In this document: one piece after another, positions 1,689 to 25,295 of the stretch
Layout: the number at the start of each line of letters is the position of its first letter
How positions within the stretch are numbered: the first letter of the stretch is position 1
Source: a virus
Lineage: Duplodnaviria; Heunggongvirae; Uroviricota; Caudoviricetes
Virus record (IMG/VR): IMGVR_UViG_3300042992_000089
Length of the DNA stretch: 64,000 nucleotides
Reading direction: 5' to 3' (one strand)
The notes under the pieces: generated by a model
Told to the model about the DNA's origin: nothing
Database searches by the model: none
What the model saw: the letters and a program-made list of their open reading frames with translations, nothing else
Translations under genes and position numbers: made by a program

Positions 1689-1712
1689 TAATAAATAAAT
1701 AAAGAAATAAAA

Positions 1713-4547: not shown

Positions 4548-4549
4548 TT

Positions 4550-4945: not shown

Positions 4946-4952
4946 AACAATT

Positions 4953-4984
4953 TTTGGAAAGGGTGCAAGGATTAACTATCTTTG
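4953..4984 (+). promoter_or_regulatory. Candidate Bacteroidota-type promoter: TTTG -33-like element plus a TATCTTTG -7 box
   Basis: TATCTTTG at 4977-4984 lies 18 nt upstream of the ATG at 5003. TTTG at 4953-4956 lies about 21 nt further upstream. There is no SD. Confidence 0.35.
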
Positions 4985-5002
4985 TACCCTTAATTATTTA
5001 AT

Positions 5003-6689: not shown

Positions 6690-7264
6690 TTCTCTGTATT
6701 AAAAAAGAATGTTTGAAATAGTCTACCATCTTGTAGATCTTTGCCAAAGTAATCCAAAGATACATGGAATAAGTCACCTCTATATAAAATAAGTCTGTTA
6801 TATACATTACCTATTCTATCTACCATCTCCCACTTTGTATAATCCATACCTTCAACATGTGGTGCTGCAGTTTTTGTTTCTTCTTCTGTATGTTCAGTAT
6901 ATATCCAATTCTTAAGACCTGTTTCTTTGTGTCTAAAGATACCTGTGCCTGAAGACAAAGGAGCATCAGGAGTAAGATAGCACACACCTGCCCAATTTGT
7001 AGTGCCATCACTGTGAATCCATGATCTATCTTGTGCTGTTGTGTATTGGAAAGCACCTGAATTATCATCTCCCCACCAAACTACATCACCTGCAAAGGGT
7101 CTAATATTATCTTGTATTATTTGTTTAATACTATCATTTAGAAAAGACTTAGTTCTTCTACCAGGATAGTTACCAGACTCACCAAATTCTTGACTCATAG
7201 CAAACGCTCTCACCTCATCTGGGTTATTGTAAAAGTCTGATATGGATAACATTTCTACTCTCAT
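6686..7264 (-). CDS. Hypothetical protein, possibly a cupin/2OG-oxygenase-like fold
   Basis: WIHSDG (HxD) and a later LFHVS His give a weak resemblance. Its start overlaps the neighbour in an ATGA arrangement. Confidence 0.3.
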   Translation of the reverse strand: MRVEMLSISDFYNNPDEVRAFAMSQEFGESGNYPGRRTKSFLNDSIKQIIQDNIRPFAGDVVWWGDDNSGAFQYTTAQDRSWIHSDGTTNWAGVCYLTPDAPLSSGTGIFRHKETGLKNWIYTEHTEEETKTAAPHVEGMDYTKWEMVDRIGNVYNRLILYRGDLFHVSLDYFGKDLQDGRLFQTFFFNTEK

Positions 7265-8283: not shown

Positions 8284-8945
8284 TTGGTTCTAAATTTAAT
8301 TTCATCAATTCTAAACTTCCTTTCTTTCTCTTCACTCATACCTCCCACATTTAATGTTTCCATATGACAGACAATAGAATGTCTTACAAGAGCATGTTTA
8401 ATACCAGCCTGCTTTAGTCTTTCTGCATAGTCGTTGTCTTGATAGTACATATCAAACAACTCATCAAATGGTAAGATCTTATCTAGTGCAGACTTCTTAA
8501 TCACTGTACACCAACCTTGTAATGCTTCTGTCACAGCATAAGATTCATGATACTTACTATCAGTTCCTACAAAATGATTAGGGAACCATCTAGCATATAA
8601 CAATGGGTCTTTAGGAGAGAATGCTTCTATGTCTTCTCTGTAGTCATGTACCTTCATCATCTCTGAGAACCACCATCTTTCATAAGCTACATCATCATTA
8701 GATATAACCACCCAATCACCTTGGCAATATGTAAATGCTATGTTTAAAAACTTGTTGTAGTTAAAAGAATTCTCAGGATGTATATAGTTATGAATACGTG
8801 CATACCTATTTGGATCTTGTGTACCTGAGTCTACTAATTGCACACGAAACCTAAAGTCAATCTCACTATCATGCAATGTATCTATTGTACGTTGTGTCAG
8901 AGCCACATTAGTGCTATCTGTTAATATGATTACATCTATTGTCAT
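8271..8945 (-). CDS. Glycosyltransferase, GT-A fold (GT2-like)
   Basis: VVISNDDVAY is a DxD-like motif in a roughly 220-aa GT-A sized protein. Confidence 0.5.
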   Translation of the reverse strand: MTIDVIILTDSTNVALTQRTIDTLHDSEIDFRFRVQLVDSGTQDPNRYARIHNYIHPENSFNYNKFLNIAFTYCQGDWVVISNDDVAYERWWFSEMMKVHDYREDIEAFSPKDPLLYARWFPNHFVGTDSKYHESYAVTEALQGWCTVIKKSALDKILPFDELFDMYYQDNDYAERLKQAGIKHALVRHSIVCHMETLNVGGMSEEKERKFRIDEIKFRTKWNQ

Positions 8946-11605
8946 TTCTTTCTGAATGATTTATGTGTATTGTCTATTAAAGAAAATCCATCTGCTTGGG
9001 TAGTAAGTCTTTTCTTAACCATTCCCATTTGAGGCCCTGCAAAGATACTATTAAAATACATATCAGCAGCATCCCATTTGTGTGTTCTTAAGTTGTTCTT
9101 TAAAAACTTAGCTGCCTCTTTTGGAAACATAATAGATTGTAAACCAATGATATGATTGGTTACATACATTTCATTATTGATATCTTTAACAATAGGTGAT
9201 TGTGGCCAGCCATGTTCTAGTGTATCAGCATCTCCAAAAGACATATAGTTTATGTTGTTTGGTACCAATAAGTGTGCACATTCCTCAACTTTTCGTACGA
9301 AAAAGTGTATGTCTGTCTCAATGATACAATCTCCTTCACACACCATTAAGAAGTCACAATCATGAAACTCTGTTAAGATGGCATTCTTAAATGCTTCGTA
9401 GCATCCATAATGTGCTGGGGTAAGTGCAGTGCCATACTGTTGAATTTGTTGCTCATTGAAGAGTTCCATTGAAACACAATCTGGTCTGAGACAGTTATGC
9501 TTGGGTGGTAATGACTTATAGGGCTCGTTAAACTGTATGACATATTCCCAGCCATGGTCTTTGACTCTTTCAAGGGATGCTCTACTTTGTTGTTCTCTTT
9601 CATCATTTAATGTGGTTTGTATATGAACTAATTTAATCTTAGGTCTTTCGTTCTTCCATTCAAACTTTCCTGTGTGTTGGTACTTATGTAAGTTATCTTT
9701 GGTCAGCTTAAACTCTTCCAACTTATATTGAACATCTCCATCATAAAAATCCATTTTAATATCTATAGGATCTCCTTTGAATTCAAACTGATAAACAAGT
9801 TCATGGTTCTTAGCTGGTATTATTCTTTTCCACATGTAATCTTCAATAGATACATAGATGTTTCTATAGTCTCTGTTATATGTAAAGAAGTAGAACACAT
9901 AATTGTTTGGTTTTCCAACAACAGGGATGATAGAATAATACTCACTATTTGATGCTACACCTAATCCACTGTGAACTAACAAGGTATCCTTATCATTAGT
10001 AACTAACTGTATATCATTTGGGTTGAAGCTAAAGATAACCTTTGACAAATAGTCTTCTAGATAGTTCTCACATCTTCTTCTCTTACACACTTCGTTCCAT
10101 TCTTCTGGTGTACGCACATCATCAAACTCTTTCAAGAAGAAGTCTGTGTCAAACATAATACCATTGGTCTGAATTCCCTTACCCTGTGGAGTGGGTAGGG
10201 TAGCAGCATATAACTTTTTATCTGTTCTGAATGCATCATTTACTGCAGGGATATCTCTAGGATCTAATACAACATCATATGTAGTATAGAAGAACCTCTT
10301 AAACCCAAGCTCTTTAGCAACCTTAGCTGCATTAAATATATTAGTTAAGACAGTCAATGACTGGTTACTATTCTTCAATCCATTGATGTTGATCTCAGCA
10401 AAGTAGTCTGGTCTGTCATTGTAAAACCTGGTGTAATAACTGTGATGAGTCAAAGGATTATGCACATCGTATATATAACAATCCACCATGTTTTGAATGT
10501 CTATATCTACAGGATAGTGAGACACTAGTATAATCTTTCTACCCAATGGTTTAAGACTATTGATAGTATCCTTAGTCCATTGAATCCTATCCTTAATGTT
10601 TGGATAGGTGCCTAAGATGATACACTCTTCTTCCATTACATCTAAGTTTAATTTTTTGATAATATTGGTAGCATCACTACCAAGATCTCCAGTTAAATAA
10701 ACCATGTTCTCTTCATTGTTATATTTGTTACAGTATACATCTAGATTATACATCACTTTGATCAAGTCATCATATTCCATGGCTTCTTTAATAGCAATAG
10801 GATTTAACTCCTTGTTACCTCTATCTCCCTTTGATGGAAAGAAGAATACATCACATGCTTTTAAGAAGTCACTTACATCATCACGCTCTCCCCAGACAAC
10901 ACAGTTGTTTGGTTTATTAGCCATCAGTGGCTTCCAATAATTCTCAAAGTTACCTGCTTGGTTACCTAGGAAGTGAAACTTCACCTTATAGTTCTTAAGT
11001 CTTTCTGCTAGTTGAAATGCATAAGCTTGATTCTTTCTAGGTGTAAATAGTCCTACAGTTACAAAGTGTTTGTATTCAGGATCTAAGCCATAGTCTTTTT
11101 GTCTTTCTACTTTATTTCTAACCTTCTTATCAATAGGATATTCAATTACTTCTGTAGGTACATCTAAGTCTATGTATTGGAATGAGTTGTAAGAGCTAAC
11201 AAATATAAACTTGTCAGGCATCCATCTCTTGTGCTTAGGATTGAATGAGCTGTCATGCGTAGTCTCTGATATCTTCCAAGTTCTATTATCTGAATAGATG
11301 AATGCAGAAAGCTTGTCGTCCATGAACATCTCAGGAAACTCTTCCATCACTATAACATCTGGATTGAACTGTTCAATAATTCCAGACAGTTCACCATACT
11401 TATCTTCTCCTAAAGAATGGAAGTTAACTCCTTCTGTAAGCATTTGAATGATCTTGTTTCGCTGTACAACAAATGACCATGCTAGAAATGAATACTCTAC
11501 CACCTTAATTTCAAAGTAATCTTTTAACAGTTCCACTTTGTTTACTGTTACCTGAGGAGCCCCTCCTGTTGATAGGTGAGGAGTGATTATTAATAGCTTT
11601 TTCAT
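8942..11605 (-). CDS. Large multidomain glycosyltransferase: N-terminal GT4 module plus additional C-terminal transferase-like domains
   Basis: The N-terminus MKKLLIITPHLSTGGAPQ plus FFFPSKGDRGNKELNPIAIKEAMEY matches GT4 N- and C-motifs. The C-terminal 300 aa (GCYEAF...FLMVCEGDCII) look like a second nucleotide-sugar transferase domain, possibly GT25-like, but this is unverified. Confidence 0.6.
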   Translation of the reverse strand: MKKLLIITPHLSTGGAPQVTVNKVELLKDYFEIKVVEYSFLAWSFVVQRNKIIQMLTEGVNFHSLGEDKYGELSGIIEQFNPDVIVMEEFPEMFMDDKLSAFIYSDNRTWKISETTHDSSFNPKHKRWMPDKFIFVSSYNSFQYIDLDVPTEVIEYPIDKKVRNKVERQKDYGLDPEYKHFVTVGLFTPRKNQAYAFQLAERLKNYKVKFHFLGNQAGNFENYWKPLMANKPNNCVVWGERDDVSDFLKACDVFFFPSKGDRGNKELNPIAIKEAMEYDDLIKVMYNLDVYCNKYNNEENMVYLTGDLGSDATNIIKKLNLDVMEEECIILGTYPNIKDRIQWTKDTINSLKPLGRKIILVSHYPVDIDIQNMVDCYIYDVHNPLTHHSYYTRFYNDRPDYFAEININGLKNSNQSLTVLTNIFNAAKVAKELGFKRFFYTTYDVVLDPRDIPAVNDAFRTDKKLYAATLPTPQGKGIQTNGIMFDTDFFLKEFDDVRTPEEWNEVCKRRRCENYLEDYLSKVIFSFNPNDIQLVTNDKDTLLVHSGLGVASNSEYYSIIPVVGKPNNYVFYFFTYNRDYRNIYVSIEDYMWKRIIPAKNHELVYQFEFKGDPIDIKMDFYDGDVQYKLEEFKLTKDNLHKYQHTGKFEWKNERPKIKLVHIQTTLNDEREQQSRASLERVKDHGWEYVIQFNEPYKSLPPKHNCLRPDCVSMELFNEQQIQQYGTALTPAHYGCYEAFKNAILTEFHDCDFLMVCEGDCIIETDIHFFVRKVEECAHLLVPNNINYMSFGDADTLEHGWPQSPIVKDINNEMYVTNHIIGLQSIMFPKEAAKFLKNNLRTHKWDAADMYFNSIFAGPQMGMVKKRLTTQADGFSLIDNTHKSFRKK

Positions 11606-12301
11606 TTATGTAAATCTCTTTTTGTATGGATTATCAATTGTCTGATCTTCTACTGTAATATTTAAAAAGTTAAAACCTTGTAATGGACCACTAAGATACC
11701 CTATCTTGCCTGAAAAAAAAGTATTAAATGCAAGGCTTATTCTAGTTTTATCATCACTTGTTGTTGGAACACTATGTTCTGTAGTAGATGGGAATAGAAC
11801 AATATCTCCTTTATTTACAGGGAAATAAGCTTCAACACAAGTATACATGTTTTGTTCTTTTGCCTGTATTTGTAAATTATTAGGCAATGCTCTTCCAAAC
11901 ATTATCTTATCTGTATTCTTATCTGCATTGAAATATAAACATCCACTAATTATACTGTTTGGATGATGGTGCTGATGATGTGATTGTTCTTTCTTTGTGT
12001 AATTAAACCAAGACTGAGTTATAGATAATTTAAGTCCTTCTGGATTTATAGGATTATACACGTTTATCAAGTAATCATTAAGAATGGACTCAATGAATAG
12101 TTTTACATTACTAAGTTTAGGATTGTTTAAAACATACAAATTGTGTGTTGTAGAGTTTGATGAATTTCTAAATACATCACTTTCATACTCATATGCACAT
12201 TCTATTTCTTCATTAGTAAAGTCTCTATTGATGTTATTTAATAAAACAGGGATAGGGAAGATTGGTACTATTACTCCTCCTTGGTTTTGTTGTTCTGACA
12301 T
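11606..12301 (-). CDS. 2OG-Fe(II) oxygenase (TIGR02466-like family common in marine phages)
   Basis: The pattern HHQHHHPNSIISGCLYF ... GDIVLFPS ... H ... RISLAFN matches the conserved H..HPxS..SG.YY / FPS..xH / RISISFN signature of that family. Confidence 0.6.
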   Translation of the reverse strand: MSEQQNQGGVIVPIFPIPVLLNNINRDFTNEEIECAYEYESDVFRNSSNSTTHNLYVLNNPKLSNVKLFIESILNDYLINVYNPINPEGLKLSITQSWFNYTKKEQSHHQHHHPNSIISGCLYFNADKNTDKIMFGRALPNNLQIQAKEQNMYTCVEAYFPVNKGDIVLFPSTTEHSVPTTSDDKTRISLAFNTFFSGKIGYLSGPLQGFNFLNITVEDQTIDNPYKKRFT

Positions 12302-12302
12302 A

Positions 12303-13229
12303 TTATAAATTATTATTGATTGCGTGAATTACTTGTTCTACAGATGGATGACATTCAAAAGTTTCTTTCTTCTCTAAGCATCCTATTAATGGTTGTACAT
12401 AATCTATTGTTGGCCAATACTCAAGAGCATATTTCATATTAGAATTACAATGTAATCCACAACCTCCTCTTACATATATGTGCTTGCCTTCTTGTCTATG
12501 TGGTGTACGAAACTCTGGATTGATAGGAGATCCTAACTCAACAATGTCAGTTTTGGTTGTGCCTGCTAGATGTAGAATACCTGAGTCCATGGTGATAACA
12601 ACCTTAGCATTGTTAATGAGATGCCAAGTTTGAGCGATGGATGTCTTATTCATAAGGTTTATAACGTTATCGTCCATCTTATGTACAGGTTTGTTTACAT
12701 TAAAGAATCCTGTCTCAGAACTATCCTTACCAACTGCCACCACTTTGTAGCCCCATTTATTTAATTCATCAACTAGTTTAAGCCAGTTCTCTTGTGACCA
12801 AGTTCTATTGGGCCAGCTATTAACAGGATGTATCACAGCATATCTACCCTCTACAGAAACATTAGGTTCTTCTGTAGGCTGATAGAAACATTCTAATTCA
12901 TCTTTTCCAAGCATAAATCCTAGATGTATAGCATGGAACTGCCTAATATCCATCATGTTGTGCTTCATCTCTATACCACGCTCATCTTTCTTACCCACTA
13001 GATAGAATGAATTATGTATAATGTAATTACTTTGTATGTACGTCATGTCTATAGAGCTAGCTTTGTAGCTCTTTTCTACATAAGGGTTCATCTTAAACAA
13101 CTCAGGCATCTGAGAGATGACTATAATCTTTCTTTGATACGCATCATGAAGCTTTTTAATAGTGGGGGTGGCACAGATAAGATCACCCAATCCATTACAT
13201 TCTTCTAGATTTAAACAAACTGGTTTCAT
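12303..13229 (-). CDS. Glycosyltransferase family 9 (ADP-heptose:acceptor heptosyltransferase-like)
   Basis: GLGDLICATPTIKKL, WPNRTWSQENWLKLVDEL..GYKVVAVG and VITMDSGILHLAG are the classical RfaC/RfaF-type GT9 motifs. The track ORF begins at a TTG at 13391 with a junk N-terminus. I place the start at the ATG at 13227-13229 (MKPVCLNLEEC...). Confidence 0.75.
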   Translation of the reverse strand: MKPVCLNLEECNGLGDLICATPTIKKLHDAYQRKIIVISQMPELFKMNPYVEKSYKASSIDMTYIQSNYIIHNSFYLVGKKDERGIEMKHNMMDIRQFHAIHLGFMLGKDELECFYQPTEEPNVSVEGRYAVIHPVNSWPNRTWSQENWLKLVDELNKWGYKVVAVGKDSSETGFFNVNKPVHKMDDNVINLMNKTSIAQTWHLINNAKVVITMDSGILHLAGTTKTDIVELGSPINPEFRTPHRQEGKHIYVRGGCGLHCNSNMKYALEYWPTIDYVQPLIGCLEKKETFECHPSVEQVIHAINNNL

Positions 13230-13246
13230 CTGTTGGTTATTTAAAA

Positions 13247-13263
13247 CAAAGTTACTATATTTG
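13247..13263. promoter_or_regulatory. Divergent candidate promoter pair (TAnnTTTG boxes on both strands)
   Basis: TAACTTTG on the minus strand at 13254..13247 lies 17 nt upstream of the GT9 ATG. TATATTTG on the plus strand at 13256..13263 lies 24 nt upstream of the ATG at 13288. This is a strand-switch point. Confidence 0.4.
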
Positions 13264-13287
13264 TTGGAAATAAAAAACATTTTTACT

Positions 13288-13656
13288 ATGAAAATTGAAG
13301 TTTCTGTGGGGGAAGTTGTAGACAAATGGACTATACTTTCTATCAAAGCTCTGAACATTACAGACAAAGACAAACTAGTTAATGTTTTCAAAGAGAAAAC
13401 TTATCTAAATGATGCTGTACATCCTGAGATATTACATGATCCTTTGACAGACATGTTGCTTGAAGTTAATAAAGCTCTTTGGAAAGTGGAAGATCTTATA
13501 AGAGACTTTGAAAGAGCTAATAGTTTTGGAGAAGAGTTTATTGATTTAGCTAGATCTGTCTACAAGTTGAATGATAAAAGAGCACATATTAAAAAAGAAA
13601 TTAATATTAAGTATGGGTCTGACTTTGTAGAGGAGAAATCCTACCAGCCCTACTAA
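13288..13656 (+). CDS. Hypothetical protein
   Basis: This is an ATG-initiated ORF. The track version starts at a GTG at 13162 that overlaps the divergent promoter and is probably an over-extension. Confidence 0.5.
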   Translation: MKIEVSVGEVVDKWTILSIKALNITDKDKLVNVFKEKTYLNDAVHPEILHDPLTDMLLEVNKALWKVEDLIRDFERANSFGEEFIDLARSVYKLNDKRAHIKKEINIKYGSDFVEEKSYQPY

Positions 13657-14928: not shown

Positions 14929-15534
14929 ATGAACTTAGATAAATTAAAAGGACACATTCCTGATGGAGTGATTGCTCAGATTCCTGCTGTGCAGGAGAAG
15001 TTTGAGATCAATACACCTTTACGTTTAGCTCATTTCCTAGCACAAACAGGACATGAGTCAGGTGGATTCAAAGCTGTTACAGAAAACTTAAACTATGGTG
15101 CTGCTGGTTTACAGAGCATATTTAAGAAATACTTTACTGCTGAGAGTGCTAAGGAGTTTGAACGCAAACCTGAAAAGATTGCTAACATTGTCTATGCTAA
15201 TCGTATGGGTAATGGACCTCAAGCAAGTGGAGAAGGATTTAAGTTTAGAGGACGTGGTTACATCCAGTTAACAGGAAAGGATAACTACACTGCTTTTGAT
15301 AAAGTGGTAGAGGATGACATCTTAGCTAACCCAGAACTTGTAGCTACAAAGTACCCACTTTTATCTGCTGCTTGGTTCTTCCATAAGAATGGATTACATA
15401 AGATTGCTGATGAGGGAGCTACAGATGCTGTGGTAACCAAGGTGACTAAGCGTGTTAATGGTGGTACAATTGGTCTTGCTGATCGTATCAAACATTTTAA
15501 TGAATACAACAACCTTTTAAATGGTAGTATATAA
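14929..15534 (+). CDS. Endolysin, glycoside hydrolase family 19 (chitinase-like lysozyme)
   Basis: AHFLAQTGHESGGF and FRGRGYIQLTGKDNY are hallmark GH19 endolysin motifs. There is no signal peptide. Confidence 0.8.
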   Translation: MNLDKLKGHIPDGVIAQIPAVQEKFEINTPLRLAHFLAQTGHESGGFKAVTENLNYGAAGLQSIFKKYFTAESAKEFERKPEKIANIVYANRMGNGPQASGEGFKFRGRGYIQLTGKDNYTAFDKVVEDDILANPELVATKYPLLSAAWFFHKNGLHKIADEGATDAVVTKVTKRVNGGTIGLADRIKHFNEYNNLLNGSI

Positions 15535-15680
15535 TGGCTAACGCTAAGAAAAAACCTAAAGCAATGCGTAGCAGACGCTCTGGAGTTAAAAAAGCAGAAC
15601 TATTAAAACATAACAGTGAGGTATTGTACAATGTATGGACAGCACTTAATGCTCAACAAGTTTTAAAAAACTATAAATAA
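15534..15680 (+). CDS. Small basic protein (48 aa)
   Basis: Its ATG overlaps the endolysin stop (TAATG), and its stop overlaps the next ATG. The N-terminus MANAKKKPKA resembles the lysine-rich family at 20568-23418. It is not in the ORF track because it is shorter than 60 aa. Confidence 0.4.
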   Translation: MANAKKKPKAMRSRRSGVKKAELLKHNSEVLYNVWTALNAQQVLKNYK

Positions 15681-16653: not shown

Positions 16654-16782
16654 ATGGCAAAAGCAAAAGGAGCATCAAATGCTAAGAAAATTACCTTTGG
16701 AAAACGCAAAGGAGGAAAGGCTACTAAGTTCAAAGGTCCTAAGGACAAAGCAACTAAGCCTTACAACAGACAGGGCAGATAA
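16654..16782 (+). CDS. Small basic protein (42 aa)
   Basis: MAKAKGASNAKKITFGKRKGGKATKFKGPKDKATKPYNRQGR begins at an ATG at 16654 and is absent from the ORF track. It belongs to the same K-rich family. Confidence 0.35.
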   Translation: MAKAKGASNAKKITFGKRKGGKATKFKGPKDKATKPYNRQGR

Positions 16783-16890: not shown

Positions 16891-17859
16891 ATGGCTATAC
16901 CAAGCAGACAGATAGGATGGGGAACAGAAGAAAACCTTTTATGGCAAATTTCTAAGCAATTAGAAGCTATAAATGGTGTTGCATATAACGCAGGTGGTGG
17001 TGGTGGCACTGGTACCTCTGGTACAAGTGGTGCTGCTGGTTTATCAGGAACATCAGGAACTAGTGGTGTTGTAGGTACGTCTGGAACTTCAGGTCTTTCT
17101 GGTACATCTGGTATCAGTGGTACCAATGGTATCAGTGGTACTAATGGAGTTAGTGGAACAAGTGGTACTTCAGGAATTGATGGAACTTCTGGTATAGATG
17201 GTACTAGTGGAATAAATGGAACAGCTGGAACTTCAGGTGATAATGGTTCATCAGGAACAAGTGGCGAAACTGGTACTTCTGGTATAGATGGTACTTCAGG
17301 AACATCAGGTGAATCAGGTACTTCAGGAGTAAGTGGTACAGCTGGAACAGCTGGTATTGCAGGAACTGCAGGAACTAGTGGAGTTAATGGGGTTGTTGGT
17401 GGTTATTTAGGATCTTTCTATGATACTACAAGTCAAACAGGTCTTGCAGGAGCTGTTCTTACAATGGGTCTTACTAATTCAGATTCTTGGAATAATGGTG
17501 TTTCACTTGTTTCTGGTAATCAAATAACAATAGCTAATCCTGGTGTATATAATATACAATTTAGTGCACAGATGGTAAAAAATGCTGGTAACACTGCAAC
17601 GCATGCACACATTTGGCTATCACAAAATGGTACAAATGTACCTACTAGTGCTTCTCAATTAGGATTTCCTTCTAACTCTGTGTATGTTGTAGCAGCTTGG
17701 AATTTCTTTTTCAAGACAACAGTGGCTAATGAATATGTACAGCTTAAATGGGAAATAAATAGTAATGTAAACGATGCAATAGTTATCCAATCAGCTGCAG
17801 CTACAGGAAATGTTCCTGCTATCCCTGGTCTAATTGTAACAGTAAATCAAGTAGGATAA
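16891..17859 (+). CDS. Collagen-like protein with a C-terminal C1q/BclA-like jelly-roll domain
   Basis: The N-terminal module is [25 protein letters not shown], followed by [13 protein letters not shown]... Gly-X-Y repeats. The C-terminal domain, [12 protein letters not shown]...[13 protein letters not shown]...NEYVQLKW...QVG, is homologous to the central domain of the first fiber ORF and has a C1q-like pattern. Confidence 0.8.
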
Positions 17860-17871
17860 AATATATTAATA

Positions 17872-18009
17872 ATGGCAATACCTTCACAACAAATAGGCTG
17901 GAGTCAAAAATCTAAATTGCTTTGGCAAATATCTAAGCAATTGGAATACCTTACAGGTATATTATATAAAGGTGGGACGACTACTACAACCACTACAGCT
18001 ACTCCTTAA
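17872..18009 (+). CDS. Small paralog of the N-terminal module of the 16891 protein, with a poly-Thr tail
   Basis: [45 protein letters not shown] (45 aa) begins at an ATG at 17872 and is not in the ORF track. Confidence 0.45.
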   Translation: MAIPSQQIGWSQKSKLLWQISKQLEYLTGILYKGGTTTTTTTATP

Positions 18010-19054: not shown

Positions 19055-19294
19055 ATGGCCCAGAATACTAATCGCCCTCTCAAAGCCTATGTACGCTTTG
19101 ATGGTACTGGAAGAATCGTTCCAAGTAGCCTAATTCTAAGAAGAAAGAAACCAAAAGTGGGTAAGTGGGTAGAGATCCCAGCTTATGAATGCTGCAATTA
19201 CGTTCCTACCACTACCACTAGTACAAGTAGTACTACAACAACTACTACTACAGCTACTCCTACAACAACAACAACTACAACTGAACCTCGTTAA
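19055..19294 (+). CDS. Small protein with a conserved core and a poly-Thr/Ser tail (paralog A)
   Basis: It reads LKAYVRFDGTGRIVPSSLILRRKKPKVGKWVEIPAYECCN followed by TTTTSTSSTTTTTTTATPTTTTTTTEPR. Confidence 0.55.
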   Translation: MAQNTNRPLKAYVRFDGTGRIVPSSLILRRKKPKVGKWVEIPAYECCNYVPTTTTSTSSTTTTTTTATPTTTTTTTEPR

Positions 19295-19306: not shown

Positions 19307-19552
19307 ATGGCAAATAGCAATAATAGATTAAAAGCATATGTACGTTACGATGGTACAGGACGTGTCATAGCAGGTAGTTTGATCTTACAAAGATTCAAAC
19401 CAAAGGTTGGTAACTGGCAAGAGATAGATGCAAATGAGTGTTGTAATCCTCCTACTACAACTACAACATCTACTAGTAGCACAAGTACAACTACTACTAC
19501 TACTAGCACTTCTACTAGCACAACTACCACAACAACAACTAGTCCTGGATAA
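19307..19552 (+). CDS. Small protein with a conserved core and a poly-Thr/Ser tail (paralog B)
   Basis: It reads LKAYVRYDGTGRVIAGSLILQRFKPKVGNWQEIDANECCN followed by a 40-aa T/S tail ending SPG. It is a tandem duplicate of the previous gene. Confidence 0.55.
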   Translation: MANSNNRLKAYVRYDGTGRVIAGSLILQRFKPKVGNWQEIDANECCNPPTTTTTSTSSTSTTTTTTSTSTSTTTTTTTSPG

Positions 19553-19566
19553 TAAAACCAAACAAC

Positions 19567-19971
19567 ATGGCAAAATCATTATTCCCTGAAGAGATGATGA
19601 AATCAGGGGAATTAAACTTGGAAACAATAGCTGGGAAGCTTACATATTTCCATGAGCAACTACACCTATTACATTGGCAGACAAAAAGTTATGCTGAGCA
19701 CCAAGCTTTAGGAGGATTGTATGATTATGTACATGACTTTAAAGATGGTGTGATAGAGAAGCTTATGGGTTATACAGGTAAACGTCCTGGTGTATATAAA
19801 ATAGAAGCATTGAGCGGTGCAGACTCTAATTCAGTTGTCACAGCACTAATGGACTTCTCTAGTAACTTAAAGAGATATGCTGAATCAAACAGCTATCACG
19901 ATATAGCCAATTTAGCTGATGCCCTAAGTGGTGAAGCAGCAAAAACTAAATACTTATTAACCTTGTCTTAA
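19567..19971 (+). CDS. Hypothetical protein
   Basis: This is an ATG ORF whose stop overlaps the next ATG (TAATG). Confidence 0.5.
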   Translation: MAKSLFPEEMMKSGELNLETIAGKLTYFHEQLHLLHWQTKSYAEHQALGGLYDYVHDFKDGVIEKLMGYTGKRPGVYKIEALSGADSNSVVTALMDFSSNLKRYAESNSYHDIANLADALSGEAAKTKYLLTLS

Positions 19972-20264
19972 TGCAAATTAACAAGAAATTTTTTCCTCAG
20001 GTGATGCAAGATAATGAACTTGCTTATTTTGCACACCTTGAGGGAATTATATCCTCAGTTGATGAACTATCTACGTTAGAGATTACTAAAAATCCTAATT
20101 CGTATCACTTTAGATTGGCACCTTCAGTACCCATGTACAATGAAATGTTGCTAGAAGAAATCTTAAAGTTTCATAACATGTTCAAGATTAGACTGAATCT
20201 GTCTAAGAGTATTAAAAGTTCAGCAACTATAACGTTTGAAATAAATTTGGAAGATACGCAATAA
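19971..20264 (+). CDS. Hypothetical protein
   Basis: This is an ORF in an operon-like arrangement. Confidence 0.45.
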   Translation: MQINKKFFPQVMQDNELAYFAHLEGIISSVDELSTLEITKNPNSYHFRLAPSVPMYNEMLLEEILKFHNMFKIRLNLSKSIKSSATITFEINLEDTQ

Positions 20265-20301: not shown

Positions 20302-20568
20302 ATGGCAGAGATTATTGATTTACAACAACAACAAGGTCCTAAGTTTGATCCAAACAAGAAGTATACGTGGAATATGGATGCAAAGTTTGTATTAGATGGT
20401 GGTGATTTTGGAATGTTATTAAACGCAATGCGTGCAGTTATTAATACAAAGGAAGCACAAACTATTTTATTAGCTAAACAAGCAGGAGATGTTCTTGAAG
20501 AGACATTGGCTGCTGGAGTTGAATCTGGTTTAGTAGTAGAGGTTCCAGAAAATAAATCTAGTTTATAA
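20302..20568 (+). CDS. Hypothetical protein
   Basis: This is an ORF immediately 5' of the K-rich array. Confidence 0.45.
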   Translation: MAEIIDLQQQQGPKFDPNKKYTWNMDAKFVLDGGDFGMLLNAMRAVINTKEAQTILLAKQAGDVLEETLAAGVESGLVVEVPENKSSL

Positions 20569-21038
20569 TGGCAACAATTAAGAAAGCTCAAGCTGGTATT
20601 AAGAAATCAGCTTCTAAAATGGTACCAGGTGAAATGACTGGTAAAATGTACAAGAAGTCTGAAATAGATGAGATTGGCAGAAAGCAAGCTAAAGAGCTAG
20701 ACAAATCTGGTGTGTTTGGTAAAGCTGCTATGGCTAAGAAGAAAGCTTCAGCTAAGACAAATAATCCTTTGAAAGAAATGATTTCTAACTTCTCAGAAGC
20801 TGAAATAAAGAAAGCAAAAGCAGCTACTAAAAAACCTAAATTAACTGCTGCAAAAGTTTCTAAAGCTATAGATGAAGTTGCAGGTATGAAAAATGGTGGT
20901 ATGCTAAAGCGTGCTGATGGTTCATATTCTAAAAGAGGACTATGGGATAACATTAGAGCTAACAAAGGGTCTGGAAAGAAGCCTACAGCTGCTATGTTAA
21001 AACAAGAAAAGAAAATTAAAGCTAAAACTAAAAAATAA
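20568..21038 (+). CDS. Lysine/alanine-rich disordered basic protein (H1-like), array member 1
   Basis: It begins MATIKKAQAGIKK and contains KKAKAATKKPKLTAAKVSKA, GMKNGGMLK and KKIKAKTKK. It has low complexity and its ATG overlaps the upstream stop. Confidence 0.6.
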   Translation: MATIKKAQAGIKKSASKMVPGEMTGKMYKKSEIDEIGRKQAKELDKSGVFGKAAMAKKKASAKTNNPLKEMISNFSEAEIKKAKAATKKPKLTAAKVSKAIDEVAGMKNGGMLKRADGSYSKRGLWDNIRANKGSGKKPTAAMLKQEKKIKAKTKK

Positions 21039-21373
21039 TGGCAAAGGTAAAAAAAGACAGAATGGGTAGTCTTTCAGGAATGAAAGCTTCTGATAAGCGT
21101 GTAGGTCCTGTAGATCCTAATGGTGCTTGGACTAAAGTTCAAGAGGCTACTCTAGCTGATGCTAGAATGAAACCTACATTAAAAAAAGATAAAGAACTTG
21201 GTGCTACTAGTATGGGACGTTCTGAAAAGTCTTATGGTCTTGATAAGAAGACTCCAGCTTACAAAGAAATGAATCCAGCTACATTCAGAAAAGCAGCGTT
21301 AAAGCGTGAATCTGAATTGATAGAAAAGCGTAGTGGTGAAATGGCTCCTAAGTTAAAATCTAAAAAGAAATAA
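21038..21373 (+). CDS. Lysine-rich basic protein, array member 2
   Basis: It begins MAKVKKDRMGS, ends KLKSKKK, and uses a TAATG junction. Confidence 0.6.
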   Translation: MAKVKKDRMGSLSGMKASDKRVGPVDPNGAWTKVQEATLADARMKPTLKKDKELGATSMGRSEKSYGLDKKTPAYKEMNPATFRKAALKRESELIEKRSGEMAPKLKSKKK

Positions 21374-21375
21374 TC

Positions 21376-21825
21376 ATGGCAACAGCTAAAAAGGTTAAAA
21401 AGGCTCAAACTGGAATGTCTGTAGGGACACGTACAACTATGGATAGTAAAACTGGTACCTATGATAAACTTGATAGATTTAAAACTTCTCAAGGAGATAG
21501 ATATTATAGATCTACTGGTAAAGATTTGTATAATTTAGAAAAACAGAATAGTAGAAAAGCTATGATGAATAGTGCTGATTCTGTTAGATATAACACTCTT
21601 ACACCAGAAGAAAAAAAATATATAGCTAGTCAAGAAAATCCTAAAGCTAAAGATGGCAAATGGATTCAAAAAGCTATTAAGAAGCCAGGAGCTTTACGTG
21701 CTCAACTTGGTGCTAAACCAGGTAAACCTATCCCTGCTGCTAAGCTTGCTAAGGCTGCCAAAGCAAAAGGTAAATTAGGTCAACGTGCTCGTTTAGCAAT
21801 GACATTAAAGAAGATGAAAAAATAA
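21376..21825 (+). CDS. Lysine/alanine-rich basic protein, array member 3
   Basis: It begins MATAKKVKKAQTG and its C-terminus KPGKPIPAAKLAKAAKAKGKLGQRARLAMTLKKMKK resembles a histone H1 tail. Confidence 0.6.
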   Translation: MATAKKVKKAQTGMSVGTRTTMDSKTGTYDKLDRFKTSQGDRYYRSTGKDLYNLEKQNSRKAMMNSADSVRYNTLTPEEKKYIASQENPKAKDGKWIQKAIKKPGALRAQLGAKPGKPIPAAKLAKAAKAKGKLGQRARLAMTLKKMKK

Positions 21826-22337
21826 TGGCTAGAATACCTAAGACAAAAGTTTATAACCCACAGAAAGCAGAAGCTTATGTAGGTAAAAGAGTTCTTAGAA
21901 ATGGAGATACACTTCCAGCTATCAAAGGTGCTATAACACCTGTTCCTAATGGTCATCTAATTAAAAAAGATGGTACATCATTAAAGAATGGTGGTAAGAT
22001 AAAATGTTGGACAGGGTATGTTAAGAAGGGTACAAAGAAAAAAGGTGGTAGAATAGTTAACAACTGTGTTAAAAAAACCATGGAAGATGGAGGGAAGGTA
22101 AAAGTAATGGCTGGTGGAGAGAAGCATTTAGTATATAAAAAGACTAGTCCTACAGGAGTTGGAAAAGGTAAGAAGGGTAACATTATGGTTAACCATCCTA
22201 CCAAAGACAAAGGCAAGTGGGATACAATAGATCTTACAAAGATTGGAAGAGCCAAAACTGTTAAACAGGGTGTAGCTTCTACAAAGAAATGGCACAAAGA
22301 TAATCCTGATTACAAATATAAAGGTAAAAAGAAATAG
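21825..22337 (+). CDS. Lysine/glycine-rich basic protein, array member 4
   Basis: It has repeated KNGGK / KKGG / EDGGK / AGGEK / KGKKG motifs and ends YKYKGKKK. Confidence 0.6.
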   Translation: MARIPKTKVYNPQKAEAYVGKRVLRNGDTLPAIKGAITPVPNGHLIKKDGTSLKNGGKIKCWTGYVKKGTKKKGGRIVNNCVKKTMEDGGKVKVMAGGEKHLVYKKTSPTGVGKGKKGNIMVNHPTKDKGKWDTIDLTKIGRAKTVKQGVASTKKWHKDNPDYKYKGKKK

Positions 22338-22339
22338 CT

Positions 22340-22729
22340 ATGGCTACAATTAAAAAAGCTTCTCTAAAACCAGTAGATAGTTCTAAGAAACCTGGTTTGG
22401 CTAAACTCCCTAAGGAAGTTAGAAATAAAATGGGCTACCAAAAAAGTGGTGGTTCTACACCAGCATGGCAACGCAAAGAAGGAAAGAATCCTGAAGGTGG
22501 ATTGAATGCTAAAGGTGTAGCTTCTTATAGAAGAGCTAACCCAGGCAGCAAACTAAAGACAGCTGTTACAACTAAACCATCAAAGCTTAAAGCTGGTTCT
22601 AAAGCAGCAAGTAGACGTAAGTCTTTCTGTTCTAGAATGTCAGGTATGAAAAAGAAACTTACATCTGCTAAGACAGCTAATGATCCTAATAGCAGAATTA
22701 ATAAATCACTTCGTAAATGGAATTGTTAA
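22340..22729 (+). CDS. Lysine-rich basic protein, array member 5
   Basis: It begins MATIKKASLKP and is K/S/A/G rich. Confidence 0.6.
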   Translation: MATIKKASLKPVDSSKKPGLAKLPKEVRNKMGYQKSGGSTPAWQRKEGKNPEGGLNAKGVASYRRANPGSKLKTAVTTKPSKLKAGSKAASRRKSFCSRMSGMKKKLTSAKTANDPNSRINKSLRKWNC

Positions 22730-22747
22730 AATATTAAATTATAAAAA

Positions 22748-23215
22748 ATGAAGAAAGCTCAAAATGGAATTGCAAAGATGAAAAAAGCTGAAAAAACAGC
22801 GTTTGGAATGTTATCAGTAAAAAAAGGTATAGATAATAATCCTAATCCTACATTTGCAGATAAGATTGCAGGTGCTAAGAAAAAAGCTATGTCTGGTATG
22901 GAAATGATGAAAATGGGTGGTAAAGCTGCTAAGCAAGCTGCAATAGCAATCGCTATGAAGAAAGCTGGTAAAACTCCTAAGAAGAAAATGCAATATGGTG
23001 GTGAAGCTGCTTCTATGGTACCTAAGAAGATGATGAAAAATGGTGGTATATTATCTGCTCCTAAGAAAGATGGCTTATCTATGCAATTAGGTTCTTACAA
23101 AGATATAATTGGTAAAAACTACAAAGGTAAAAATACAAAAGCTGTAGGTTTAACTAAAGCTAAGTATGGCAAATCTGTGATGAAGATGGGTGGTAAGTGT
23201 AAAAATGGTTGCTAA
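22748..23215 (+). CDS. Lysine/methionine-rich basic protein, array member 6
   Basis: It contains MKKAQNGIAKMKKAEK and three MK(M/N)GGK motifs (MMKMGGKAAK, MMKNGGIL, MKMGGKCKNGC). Confidence 0.6.
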   Translation: MKKAQNGIAKMKKAEKTAFGMLSVKKGIDNNPNPTFADKIAGAKKKAMSGMEMMKMGGKAAKQAAIAIAMKKAGKTPKKKMQYGGEAASMVPKKMMKNGGILSAPKKDGLSMQLGSYKDIIGKNYKGKNTKAVGLTKAKYGKSVMKMGGKCKNGC

Positions 23216-23418
23216 TGAAATCTAAAGTAAGCGTTAAACAAGCAAAGTCAGTAAAGCCAATGACTGCAGGTAAAGCTAAAGGATCAGGTAAACCAAGACC
23301 TGCACCTAAGGTGGCTCCTCCTAATCCAATTAATGGTAATTATATGAAGGAAGCTGATACAAAGCTTAGATTGAGAAGTAAAATGTGGCCTCTTAAACAA
23401 AAGAGACTATCAAAATAA
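23215..23418 (+). CDS. Small lysine/proline-rich basic protein, array member 7
   Basis: An ATG at 23215 (MKSKVSVKQAK...) overlaps the upstream TAA. The track start at 23209 is a TTG. Confidence 0.5.
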   Translation: MKSKVSVKQAKSVKPMTAGKAKGSGKPRPAPKVAPPNPINGNYMKEADTKLRLRSKMWPLKQKRLSK

Positions 23419-23423
23419 AAGAA

Positions 23424-23450
23424 AAGCCCCCAGAAATGGAGGCTTTTTTT
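23424..23450. terminator. Rho-independent terminator between convergent genes
   Basis: AAGCCCCCAGAAATGGAGGCTT forms a 7-bp GC-rich stem with one mismatch, followed by TTTTTTT. It lies 6 nt after the last K-rich gene and 2 nt before the stop of the convergent GT2 gene. Confidence 0.7.
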
Positions 23451-23451
23451 A

Positions 23452-24087
23452 TTAGTCTATTATATCATTTGTACCAAACATTGGTACATGCATAATTCTA
23501 TAAGATAAATTGGTACTTTTTGATTTTTCTCCTTTCCCTTCTTTTGACATACCATATATAAATTCCCAGTCGTGTCCATATATTGGTAAATGTTCTGGTA
23601 ATTTTTTGGCTAGTTCTGTTGTTAATATTATTTCACTATGACCTATTTCACAATTAGCAAATTTTGACACTCTAGCTTTATTAATAGGATCTATGAAGGA
23701 GTCAAAGAACATATAATCTAAATTGGTATTTTCTATTTCTAGGTAATTACTAAAATGACTACTAAGTATAATATCATCATTTGCATAGAATATAAAATAT
23801 TTACCTGTAGCATTTTGTATTGCATAGTTAATTAATTTATATCCACATCCTCCTCCATTTTCTTTAGCATTAAAGAAATGAATAATGTTTCCTTTTTTTT
23901 CTTGTTCCTCTTTAATAGATTGTAAATATCCACTATCAATAAGTTTTTGAAAATCTGGACAACAGTCTCCCATTATAAAGGCTTCCCAATTATTAGTATC
24001 TTGGTCTAATATACATTGTATAGATCGTTTGGTTCTCTCAGGTCTACCATAACAAGCCATACTAATTGTTATTCTTGGCTGCATCAT
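23452..24087 (-). CDS. Glycosyltransferase family 2 (GT-A)
   Basis: ISMACYGRPERTKRSIQCILDQD and FYANDDII are GT2-like N-terminal and DxD motifs. Confidence 0.6.
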   Translation of the reverse strand: MMQPRITISMACYGRPERTKRSIQCILDQDTNNWEAFIMGDCCPDFQKLIDSGYLQSIKEEQEKKGNIIHFFNAKENGGGCGYKLINYAIQNATGKYFIFYANDDIILSSHFSNYLEIENTNLDYMFFDSFIDPINKARVSKFANCEIGHSEIILTTELAKKLPEHLPIYGHDWEFIYGMSKEGKGEKSKSTNLSYRIMHVPMFGTNDIID

Positions 24088-24556
24088 TGTTTCCTATGTG
24101 TTTTACAGGCACTCCTGCATATTTTTGATAAGATTCGAGTTTACTTTTTTTAATAACTACACTATTCATGCCAATCATAATTCCTTCTGGTAAGGTTGTT
24201 TTTTGATGAATAGCTGCTCCCATACCAAGGTTCACTTTATTTCCTACAGTACAAAATCCAGCTAATTTAGAACCAGCACTCATAGTTACACTAGACCCAA
24301 GAATACAATCATGAGCTACATAAGCATGTTTCATAAGATAACAATTATTACCAATTACAGTTTGTCTTTCTGCTCCTGAATCAATAGTGACCATTCCAGT
24401 AAGTATAGTACCACTTTTAATTAAAACACCTTTATCTTCATTCTCTTTACCTTTCCATTCAGGTGGCATTCCTATAACACAATAAGGACCTATGTATACA
24501 TCGTCCTCTATTGTAACGTTATTGCCAATAACAGCTGTACTATGTATTGTTTTCAT
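24062..24556 (-). CDS. Hexapeptide-repeat (left-handed beta-helix) acyl/acetyltransferase
   Basis: It has tandem [LIV]-G-x-x-x-x hexapeptide repeats (VIGNNVTIEDDVYIGPYCVIG ... TVGNKVNLGMGAAI). Confidence 0.7.
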   Translation of the reverse strand: MKTIHSTAVIGNNVTIEDDVYIGPYCVIGMPPEWKGKENEDKGVLIKSGTILTGMVTIDSGAERQTVIGNNCYLMKHAYVAHDCILGSSVTMSAGSKLAGFCTVGNKVNLGMGAAIHQKTTLPEGIMIGMNSVVIKKSKLESYQKYAGVPVKHIGNNDAAKNNN

Positions 24557-25295
24557 TACAGAAGTCTTTTAACATTTTAATATAATCCTTTTCCCAATAA
24601 GGAATAAGGTGAATGTTTCCTGTAGGAACTCTTCCCATAGTTCTTTCTCTTTCAATATGAGCACTATGTCTTTGAATAGCATTAAGTTTCCCAGGTTGAT
24701 CATGGCCCTGTCCACTCATGTGATATCCTCTTCCTCCCCACATATAGAACCAGCTAGCTTCTTCTTTAGGTGGTTTGGCAAATAGTCTACCTCCATGGAT
24801 GTGTAGTCTTTCAATGAAAGTCATATCATATCCAGCATTTTCAAGAGGATGTCCTCCTATTGCTTTCCAAGCTGATTTTCTAAAGACAATACCAGAGTTA
24901 CCTATCCAACCAACATTCTCAATACCTGTGACATGACATAAGACTCCTGTCTCCCAATGAAGAATGTTAACTTCTTCTGTCATATACTTAGCTACGTTCT
25001 TTAAATGATTTGGTAGGGCTACATCATCATCGTCCCATTGACATATAATTTCTCCTTGACATAGTTCTGTAGCATAGTTTTCCTTCTCTCCTATAGTGAT
25101 AAATGTCTCAGACAAATTAACTATCTTAATTCGAGGATGCTCAAATATAAGAGTTTGTAAAGGGTAGTCATTAACTATGATGAGTTCACATTTATCTGCA
25201 GGATAGTCCTGCTTGAGGAAAGATTCAATGCTCTCCTCAAGCGTAGCCACCCTCCCATAAGTTATACATTTACATGATATAAATGGATATTCCAT
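24540..25295 (-). CDS. Glycosyltransferase family 2 (GT-A)
   Basis: ISCKCITYGRVATLEESIESFLKQDYP and QWDDDDV (a DxD) are GT2 motifs. Confidence 0.65.
   Translation of the reverse strand: MEYPFISCKCITYGRVATLEESIESFLKQDYPADKCELIIVNDYPLQTLIFEHPRIKIVNLSETFITIGEKENYATELCQGEIICQWDDDDVALPNHLKNVAKYMTEEVNILHWETGVLCHVTGIENVGWIGNSGIVFRKSAWKAIGGHPLENAGYDMTFIERLHIHGGRLFAKPPKEEASWFYMWGGRGYHMSGQGHDQPGKLNAIQRHSAHIERERTMGRVPTGNIHLIPYWEKDYIKMLKDFCNENNT

Follow-up and report, generated by a model that had tools for sequence, protein, structure and literature searches.

The internal proteins of bacteriophage T4 (IPI, IPII and IPIII) are small and basic, are encoded by adjacent genes and have similar N-termini while being otherwise unrelated, and their locus is variable between relatives (PMC9026906). 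About 300 copies of each are packaged in the head; the proteins bind DNA at low salt, enter the host by injection and can be dispensed with individually, and IPI is an anti-restriction factor (PMC9026906). A second described strategy is that of the polyvalent proteins, in which two to fifteen effector domains are joined in one polypeptide, commonly with an MPTase or another processing peptidase (PMC5512222); many effector domains are in this way delivered with the invading DNA, are shuffled extensively, occur also in 'solo' versions and are encoded close to late or virion genes (Iyer et al. 2017, PMC5512222). In crAss001 the cargo protein 1, gp45, sits on the portal within the capsid, extends as a thread into the tail barrel and, partly unfolded, is proposed to leave the virion first (PMC10172136). 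The T4-GC119 protein of cyanophage S-SM1 was found in purified virions (13 peptide counts) and is designated 'Structural protein' (PMC3037559 Table S8). Here we analyse an array of seven consecutive genes for small lysine-rich proteins, g1 to g7, in the IMG/VR virus record IMGVR_UViG_3300042992_000089 (Caudoviricetes); the window referred to throughout is the whole stretch analysed, 64,000 nucleotides. The array is built from conserved and shuffled mini-modules, some of which recur in virion and cargo-type proteins of other phages, and we give even chances to the reading that it is a hypervariable cassette in a late operon, whose small basic proteins are packaged in the virion and ejected with the DNA.

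The seven genes, with the length of each product in amino acids (aa) and its isoelectric point (pI), are as follows; the letters denote conserved modules described below.

20568-21038, plus strand: g1, 156 aa, pI 10.3, 24% lysine
21038-21373, plus strand: g2, 111 aa, pI 10.1, modules C-D
21376-21825, plus strand: g3, 149 aa, pI 10.5, modules E-F
21825-22337, plus strand: g4, 170 aa, pI 10.3, modules G-H-I
22340-22729, plus strand: g5, 129 aa, pI 11.1, a leader and then DUF6321 (module J)
22748-23215, plus strand: g6, 155 aa, pI 10.3, 10% methionine, modules K-M-L-M
23209/23215-23418, plus strand: g7, 69/67 aa, pI 11.3, module N

The original prediction, made from the DNA letters, described seven consecutive and very basic genes at 20568-23418 on the plus strand, and in this it was correct. 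All seven open reading frames (ORFs) are present, and independent gene callers predicted the same seven on metagenome contigs, with g7 beginning at ATG 23215; this start (67 aa, with a TAATG overlap) is more likely than TTG 23209 (69 aa). Of the window's 90 non-overlapping ORFs with a length of 60 aa or more, g1-g7 are exactly the top seven in lysine content (19.4-24.4%, pI 10.14-11.33, net charge +14.5 to +33), the window medians being 8.5% lysine and pI 5.8, and the chance that the seven most lysine-rich ORFs are contiguous is about 1e-8 (84 placements / C(90,7)). Relative to L004, the closest relative fetched, dN/dS is 0.22-0.52 for every array gene (g2 0.39, g7 0.31) and 0.15-0.22 for the flanks (0.22 for up88, the gene directly before g1). 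The seven are real genes under purifying selection, and the array as an observation is confirmed. Proteins identical to g1, g4 and g6 are recorded on 44-47 metagenome contigs, the longest of 118,488 bp, and the protein collection holds 2368 homologues of g1 and 1159 of g4, most of the latter being 130-165 aa long and without module H. About 40 syntenic relatives hold arrays of four to eight separate intact ORFs. The possibility, raised at the outset, that the region is one long frameshifted gene in other isolates was not seen in close relatives, fused versions being found only in distant phages.

The seven proteins had also been called paralogs. This was rejected because all-versus-all BLASTP gave only weak, composition-driven matches (best E=2e-5, without composition correction), and a mosaic of different modules is preferred. 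Each array protein is a string of conserved mini-modules (about 25-90 aa, designated A to P) with lysine-rich linkers and an M-K-x-G-G junction. A map of 16 seed modules on the basic ORFs of 35 loci shows that the same modules are fused, split and reordered differently among relatives, yielding combinatorial architectures of which five are given here, each pair of brackets enclosing one gene.

Window (W): [B-A][C-D][E-F][G-H-I][J][K-M-L-M][N]
L004: [B-O-A][C-D][?][G-J][O-K-M][N]
L032: [A][C-D][?][G-I-J][O-K][N]
L005: [G-I][J][B-A][P][O-C][N]
L011: [G-I-H][J][E-A][C][B][P-L][N]

The turnover is fast. The flanking proteins of L004 are 82-90% identical to those of the window, yet four of the seven array genes are rearranged and g3 is swapped for an unrelated 140-aa basic ORF, a pattern that resembles the hypervariable internal protein loci of T-even phages (PMC9026906). 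Module C occurs in 33 loci, either by itself or joined to D, F or O, and partial homologues of g6 occur in 13 loci with differing module partners. The terminal cassette gene g7 (module N) is found in 33 loci and is always last.

The recurring MK(N/M)GG motif pointed out from the letters is present, with 11 GG sites across g1, g4, g5 and g6; g6 has four xGG motifs and ends in MKMGGKCKNGC. Over 275 distinct related basic ORFs, 343 GG dipeptides were observed against 248 expected, with M at position -3 in 26% of cases (background 4.5%) and K at position -2 in 50% (background 21%). In alignment A1, modules H and J sit exactly behind xGG, whether as inserts or as C-terminal additions. In that alignment the N-terminal module G and C-terminal module I of the g4 family are conserved and H is an insert after SLKNGG in the window protein, while H is appended C-terminally after R/KxGG in P0204 and P0217, and the DUF6321 domain after KNGG in P0211 and P0225. 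In L004 the DUF6321 domain is joined to the g4 N-terminus, again at an NGG motif. M-K-x-G-G thus marks the module junctions. The N-termini share a segment of their own, MATIKKAQAG in g1 and MATIKKA in g5, and another array protein begins with MAKVKKDRMG.

A recombination signal at the level of DNA was considered for these junctions and rejected. The first Gly of [ML]KxGG is GGT in 93% of 102 sites, giving a common GGTGG core, but GGT also makes up 71-76% in ordinary GG dipeptides as against 53-58% over all Gly, and the bias is mostly general avoidance of GGAGG/GGGGG together with non-independence of the sites. One g4 junction site, 22111-22118, reads GCTGGTGG, the same as E. coli Chi.

The resemblance to histone H1 that had been proposed was based on lysine-rich segments, of which KKAKAATKKPKLTAAK is indeed found in g1 and KLAKAAKAKGKLGQRA in g3. 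The similarity to histone H1 and bacterial H1-like proteins is compositional only and consists of Lys/Ala-rich stretches of 15-20 residues; no histone domain was found in Pfam, none of the seven proteins has a Pfam linker-histone match at E<=1, and the winged-helix globular domain is lacking. The tail-like stretches are linkers or belong to conserved phage modules, the supposed H1 tail of g3 being part of one such module, phrog_20603. The description as low-complexity and disordered was only partly right: g1 has no compact fold and residues 1-59 of g4 are disordered in AlphaFold2 (AF2) predictions, but each protein has conserved modules, and g4 has a part predicted to be folded at residues ~90-165. 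Four modules of g1, g3 and g4 are listed here.

20895-21035, plus strand: module A, GGMLKRADGSYSKRGLWDNIRANKGSGKKPTAAMLKQEKKIKAKTKK, the C-terminus of g1 and the most conserved piece of the array
21658-21822, plus strand: module F (KWIQKAIKKPGAL...RARLAMTLKK), the C-terminus of g3, its 'H1-tail-like' segment, phrog_20603
21996-22076, plus strand: module H, KIKCWTGYVKKGTKKKGGRIVNNCVKK, a 27-residue two-Cys Cys-Trp mini-module at the NGG junction of g4
22086-22319, plus strand: module I, a beta-strand and C-terminal-helix mini-domain with invariant H101, H124, H157, GKWD and KWH

Module A, the C-terminal 45 residues of g1 (GGMLKRADGSYSKRGLWDNIRANKGSGKKPTAAMLKQEKKIKAK), follows the MATIKKAQAG N-terminus, module B, a lysine-rich linker and MKNGG. 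Of 599 candidate stretches 566 were confirmed, and across more than 500 IMG/VR contigs the identity of the module is 84-95%. It has 19 invariant columns (alignment A2) and is found in three contexts: standing alone in proteins of 48-60 aa, at the C-terminus of basic proteins of 100-200 aa, and inside proteins of 818-1618 aa. Its near-invariance in unrelated phages suggests a highly conserved target. The AF2 model of the whole of g1 has isolated helices and no compact fold (pTM 0.21).

Module F of g3 matches phrog_20603 over the full profile (E=1.2e-3), and the same family matches the N-termini of giant module-A proteins in L014 (6.7e-22), L037 (2.9e-9) and L028 (8e-6); directly compared, module F and the L014 N-terminus are 36% identical (pairwise E=4e-5). 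Thermus phage P23-45 has module F as a stand-alone 59-aa gene, P23p111, which follows directly on those for endolysin and holin (L178 2498-2677). The family phrog_20603 is also present in S-EIVl and Rhizobium phages.

In g4 the order is module G, SLKNGG, module H, MEDGG and module I. Residues 1-59 are disordered in the AF2 model (pLDDT <50) and module H is a weakly predicted hairpin, while residues ~90-165 form a folded beta-plus-helix mini-domain (pLDDT 75-89) for which no analogue was found in the PDB. Sequence comparison with the PDB gave no match for g1, g4 or g5. Module H recurs in a 454-aa protein of L001 and in several PHROGs.

The g5 protein consists of a MATIKKA leader, QKSGG and a DUF6321 domain (module J, ~22481-22720) with the pattern W-x-RK-x-GKN...GGLN...SFC-x-RM...WNC. 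Its membership of DUF6321 is clear (PF19846, E=8.9e-21, 74.8 bits against a cut-off of 28.5, full profile 1-72); Pfam gave no DUF6321 match in the other six array proteins. Against phrog_727 g5 scores E=1e-36, and g4 matches this family only over module H (7e-5). By tblastn the DUF6321 domain of g5 has matches in 534 phage records, mostly of cyanomyophages and pelagiphages, and no mention of DUF6321 was found in the literature searched. In L001 (Marine virus AG-345-E15, a single-virus genome) positions 3975-9236 hold a run of large charged proteins of 416, 632, 454 and 178 aa, combining a cytidylyltransferase-like domain, several Cys mini-modules (KNCGCGQDPCITYG, ACYHKVK...WPSAYASG, CWKGY...NC) and DUF6321. 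This run is the marine counterpart of the array in fused form.

That array proteins may be internal to the virion or ejected is the part of the original prediction that homology backs, because modules H and DUF6321 occur in a virion protein detected by mass spectrometry (MS), SSM1_115, and modules A and F in giants of the cargo-protein-1 type. SSM1_115, the T4-GC119 protein of S-SM1, is 495 aa long and encoded between the terminase subunit genes; it matches phrog_727 (E=2.3e-191), module H of g4 is 58% identical to it over 26 aa (E=3e-8), and the DUF6321 domain of g5 is 58% identical to its C-terminus over 96 aa (E=1e-28). The second link is a 1618-aa protein of L037 with module F at its N-terminus, module A internally, a glucosaminidase domain and a crAss_CARG1 domain (PF25725, 3.4e-13). 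Its gene directly follows that of the crAss muzzle protein (PF25731, 1.3e-53), which is the position of cargo protein 1, and we infer from domain and position that it is a crAss cargo-protein-1 orthologue. The CARG1 segment also matches a protein of Cellulophaga phage phi14:2, gp081, whose annotation as structural comes from MS/MS. The giant module-A protein of L014 is preceded by a member of phrog_15100, 'virion structural protein'.

Compared with these systems the array has a form of its own. The T4 internal proteins, likewise small basic proteins of an adjacent hypervariable locus, are the closest functional precedent for an array that is known here from its genes. However, there is no sequence homology between the two in Pfam or PHROG, the array phage is of the crAss-like podovirus type and not T-even, and the array N-termini have neither a T4-type capsid-targeting sequence nor the L/I-x-E site of gp21, nor do the annotations hold a gp21-type protease; combinatorial mini-modules with an MKxGG junction are a feature of the array that is undescribed for the T4 proteins. 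Relative to cargo protein 1, whose L037 orthologue holds modules A and F, the array proteins are short (67-170 aa against ~800-1600 aa) and lack the portal-binding CARG1 domain. With T4-GC119/phrog_727/DUF6321 (SSM1_115 of S-SM1, PHM2_112 of P-HM2) the relation is one of family, g5 being a bona fide member, but in cyanophages the modules are fused in one protein of 170-990 aa without an MKxGG junction before DUF6321, whereas H and J of the array are on separate small genes. The array also follows the shuffled-effector logic of the polyvalent proteins, distributed over several genes; its modules are much smaller and embedded in Lys-rich linkers, and none of the signature domains (MPTase, DarA-N, DdrB-ParB, PBECR and others) or known effector or peptidase domains was found in Pfam or PHROG.

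The genes around the array bear on when it is expressed. Three neighbouring features are listed here.

19567-20264, plus strand: a DUF5856 (Dps/ferritin-like) protein (PF19174, E=2.6e-14) and a 97-aa protein, dN/dS 0.15-0.18
20302-20568, plus strand: up88, an acidic 88-aa protein, pI 4.5, directly preceding g1, its stop overlapping the g1 start (ATAATG)
23422-23447, no strand given: a GC-rich hairpin with an 11-bp stem and U/A tracts on either side, after g7, between the convergent plus and minus gene blocks

The array closes a plus-strand block (13.8-23.4 kb) that is convergent on the replication block and holds holin-like, endolysin (GH19) and spanin-like genes at its start and a collagen-like fibre protein. 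Because the array shares this block with lysis and fibre genes, and because the block ends at a terminator, its context is taken to be late. The hairpin was assigned to the minus strand by the terminator scan and is read here as a bidirectional terminator closing the cassette, so that the strong terminator originally noted is present as a structure but was placed on the other strand. The linkage of all genes by TAATG overlaps proved true of part of the array: such overlaps are found at up88/g1, g1/g2, g3/g4 and g6/g7, but spacers of 2 nt separate g2/g3 and g4/g5 and one of 18 nt separates g5/g6. Since the genes look translationally coupled, lie after the lysis cassette and end at a terminator, co-expression of the array in one late unit is plausible. 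An A7 run (21030-21040) and an A6 run (21817-21827) sit just 5' of the TAATG junctions g1/g2 and g3/g4, and a -1 ribosomal slip at these runs would continue in frame into the next gene to give predicted fusion proteins.

Homologues of up88, which matched no family in Pfam or PHROG, are found before the array in 40 of the 83 loci fetched, and the DUF5856 and 97-aa neighbours accompany the cassette in 34-39 loci. The DUF5856 protein itself (19567-19971) is always linked to the cassette. In pelagiphage HTVC033P, DUF6321 lies at the end of the structural block before an amidase; this context, that of module F in P23-45 and that of the array itself point to late expression. The further scattered members of the array that had been proposed fared unevenly. 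Small basic ORFs do exist at 15534-15680 (48 aa) and 16654-16782 (42 aa), inside the lysis cassette, and the latter is kept in 16 loci, though none of the 16 seed modules was found in either, whereas the ORF at 49720 is basic only at its termini (17% lysine, pI 9.3) and is no member.

The reading to which we give even chances, that of a packaged and co-ejected cassette, would work as follows. The cassette would form the 3' end of a late transcription unit that also holds lysis and fibre genes, and its small, strongly cationic and largely unfolded products, synthesised late, would be packaged together in the capsid or cargo space, by charge and possibly by way of the shared N-terminal MA(T)(I/V)KKAQxG. 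On infection they would leave through the tail along with the DNA, an easy passage for small unfolded chains, and the individual modules would reach the cell at its very start. The mostly unfolded predictions (g1 pTM 0.21; g4 1-59 pLDDT <50) are compatible with passage through the portal. Swapping, fusion and splitting of modules at the xGG and linker junctions would give each phage lineage a different repertoire, and the cassette would be the 'split' form of the large cargo or polyvalent proteins that fuse the same modules in other phages. Packaging and ejection of g1-g7, as well as an intracellular role of each module, are suggested by homology and by analogy to the systems above.

Several observations weigh against the packaging and ejection of the array proteins. 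The S-SM1 evidence concerns a 495-aa fusion protein of a myovirus, and T4-GC119 has been described in a mobile cassette with zwf, gnd, petE and PTOX, its orthologue being annotated but undetected in Syn9 and absent from S-PM2 (PMC3037559). In the sampled set only modules A and F are common to the giant cargo-type proteins, and for F the match of g3 to phrog_20603 is marginal (E=1.2e-3). The Pfam scan of g1-g7 (E<=1) gave no CARG1 (PF25725) or other known virion domain, and the shared N-terminal motif is clear in only four of the seven proteins. The array lies outside the head and tail module, with portal and capsid genes beginning about 35 kb away, and it follows up88, DUF5856 and the lysis genes and is not directly downstream of a muzzle gene, unlike cargo protein 1. 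On the small phage contig L040 a stand-alone module A and a DUF6321-like gene are found amid RusA and exonuclease genes, a non-structural neighbourhood. The Pfam annotations, which span about -8 to 71 kb of the genome, gave no prohead or maturation protease family, and no cultured phage carries g1 or up88, neither of which has a match among GenBank phages.

Some of these observations would suit proteins that stay in the infected cell, that is, late and unpackaged nucleic-acid binders that coat or compact phage DNA or RNA, the host nucleoid or ribosomes, with the DUF5856 protein as partner and up88 as chaperone. The extreme positive charge, the constant linkage to a Dps/ferritin-like gene and the acidic up88, and the stand-alone modules in non-structural neighbourhoods of other phages are all in line with such a role, and a universal target such as nucleic acid would fit the conservation of module A across unrelated phages. 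We nevertheless consider it unlikely, since H and J are part of an MS-detected virion protein and A and F of a cargo-protein orthologue, and since no recognised DNA- or RNA-binding domain was found (Pfam for g1-g7; PDB for g1, g4 and g5). Rapid gain, loss and shuffling also fit an accessory or arms-race role better than essential genome handling.

The Gly-Gly motifs allow another view of the modules. Adenain, ASFV (African swine fever virus) pS273R and C39 peptidases cut after Gly-Gly. One may speculate that the Gly-Gly of M-K-x-G-G and the N-terminal KKAQxG are maturation sites at which a virion or host protease frees the mini-modules from small and giant proteins alike, although we would give this only a slim chance. 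The result would be polyprotein-style basic core or effector peptides, a phage counterpart of adenovirus and ASFV core-protein maturation, and the xGG adaptor would at the same time make the modules freely exchangeable.

A weaker variant of this speculation is that the Lys-rich array proteins are methylated by a SET enzyme. The window does encode a minimal SET-domain protein of 133 aa (46635-47036, minus strand, PF00856 E=4.2e-13), beside the DNA polymerase gene and 24 kb from the array, which is a putative protein lysine methyltransferase; to our knowledge a phage SET enzyme is unusual. Relatives of it are found on 89 IMG/VR contigs of very different sizes, some of 130-295 kb, and the 80 SET contigs listed share no name with the 80 array contigs listed, within the limits of pattern-based recall. 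The array list includes the near-complete relatives L005 and L007, of about 117 kb each, without a listed SET match. A functional link between SET and array was therefore rejected: the enzyme is real, but the two are not co-distributed among the matches listed. The earlier suggestion that the array proteins are substrates of lysine-modifying enzymes is not supported, the SET gene being absent from the lists of array-bearing relatives.

That the proteins condense DNA was also proposed originally; they would then be core proteins of a histone H1-, protamine- or adenovirus VII/Mu-like kind that neutralise the packaged genome. The Lys-rich composition with its A/K/P-rich stretches, the binding of DNA by the T4 internal proteins at low salt (PMC9026906) and the freshwater habitat of low ionic strength (Lake Mendota-type samples) are in favour of it. 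However, one set of seven proteins amounts to 937 aa, ~103 kDa and ~+176 charges, and a crAss001-type cargo space of ~5 MDa (PMC10172136), which must also take the giant proteins, would hold at most ~49 sets with ~8,700 charges, less than 4% of the ~237,000 phosphates of a 118-kb genome. Because of this arithmetic, bulk condensation and thus neutralisation of the genome appears improbable; Pfam gave no linker-histone or other histone domain, and conserved, position-independent modules point to specific functions over bulk charge. Internal location or ejection is retained from that proposal, and condensation is not.

Polycations may also destabilise the outer membrane or lipopolysaccharide (LPS), in the manner of cationic 'disruptin'-type peptides or endolysin tails, and g1-g7 could then be accessory lysis factors. 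They are in one transcription unit with the holin-like, endolysin and spanin-like genes and the tiny basic ORFs at 15534 and 16654, and modules adjoin lysis genes elsewhere: DUF6321 an amidase in HTVC033P, and F an endolysin and a holin in P23-45. This is decidedly improbable, considering that a full lysis set with spanin-like genes is already present 5 kb upstream, that no amphipathic or hydrophobic segments or signal peptides are evident in g1-g7, that the S-SM1 homologue was detected in virions and that the cyanomyophage gene sits between the terminase subunit genes. Finally, the view that the array is decaying debris, one former giant cargo gene broken by frameshifts with no function left in the separate genes, draws on the fusion of the same modules in 800-1600-aa proteins elsewhere and on the A6-A7 runs before two TAATG junctions, but it is very remote given a dN/dS of 0.2-0.5 for every gene, the own ATG in coupled context of each ORF, the same seven ORFs on dozens of independent contigs and the arrays of four to eight separate intact ORFs kept by about 40 relatives.

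The window is part of a freshwater Crassvirales-type phage genome of ~108-118 kb. Its major capsid protein is of the Crass_capsid family and its portal, of P22 type, has ~25% identity to those of crAss phages, and the genome has a terminase-sized large gene, rIIA/rIIB, a UvsX/RecA-type protein, ribonucleotide reductase (RNR), DNA polymerase, an HU-like protein and, upstream of collagen-like fibre genes, giant proteins of 4145 and 1744 aa, in neither of which K-rich modules were found. When the L037 CARG1 segment was used to look for the cargo protein 1 of the array lineage itself, the only match was L037. The related contigs are from freshwater metagenomes, and 10 kb compared by megablast with GenBank phages gave no match. 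Among bins of metagenome-assembled genomes (MAGs), module A is found in Sediminibacterium twice (one a 111,986-bp contig of the Lake Mendota series) and in few others, which is suggestive only of a Bacteroidota host.

Other features of the window may be recorded here. The HU-like DNA-binding protein (54860-55246) is encoded upstream of the terminase-sized gene, and a Band_7/SPFH protein (60990-61520) directly after the portal gene. Collagen-like (G-X-Y, GTS-rich) fibre proteins are encoded at 174-4547 and 16891-17859, two 2OG-Fe(II) oxygenases (prolyl/lysyl-hydroxylase-like) at 5003-5605 and 11606-12301, and at least five glycosyltransferases with a hexapeptide acyltransferase at 7261-13391 and 23452-25295; this combination points to virion fibres that are hydroxylated or glycosylated. 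A likely cause of the higher GC content (43-47%) at 1-4 kb lies in the Gly codons of the collagen repeats. Two paralogous proteins of 79 and 81 aa (19055-19294, 19307-19552) are conserved in their N-terminal halves and both have a CC motif and a long tail of poly-Thr/Ser, and a 45-aa ORF (17872-18009) repeats the N-terminus of the collagen-like protein and continues in poly-Thr. These three ORFs are conserved in ~38 related loci and could be candidate substrates of O-glycosylation.

That no such array is known in described phages is correct in so far as no GenBank phage has g1 or up88, but its components were not all new. DUF6321 (phrog_727), several PHROGs of unknown function and T4-GC119 as a 'structural protein' are already catalogued, and the T4 internal protein locus is a precedent. 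What appear to be undescribed are the array itself, the MKxGG module grammar and the wide distribution in freshwater crAss-like phages, as well as the link that joins cyanophage GC119 to crassvirus cargo protein 1 and to small orphan genes.

The cassette offers a compact natural 'parts list' of ~16 modules, with the xGG junction as its recombination rule. It ties together three things so far seen apart, namely a cyanomyophage 'structural protein' that was an orphan, the N-terminal region of crassvirus cargo protein 1, which is disordered, and small orphan genes in Thermus phages and others; among these, the well studied Thermus phage P23-45 (P23p111) is a possible experimental entry point to module F. 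Should the favoured reading of a packaged, co-ejected cassette be wrong, the array would still show cleanly how extreme the shuffling of domains can be in an accessory locus. The scale is considerable, with module A in more than 500 IMG/VR contigs and ~2,400 protein clusters and DUF6321 in more than 500 sequenced phages. If the proteins are packaged and injected, aquatic crAss-like phages, and by way of shared modules also cyanophages and pelagiphages, would carry a large and so far unrecognised first-strike repertoire.

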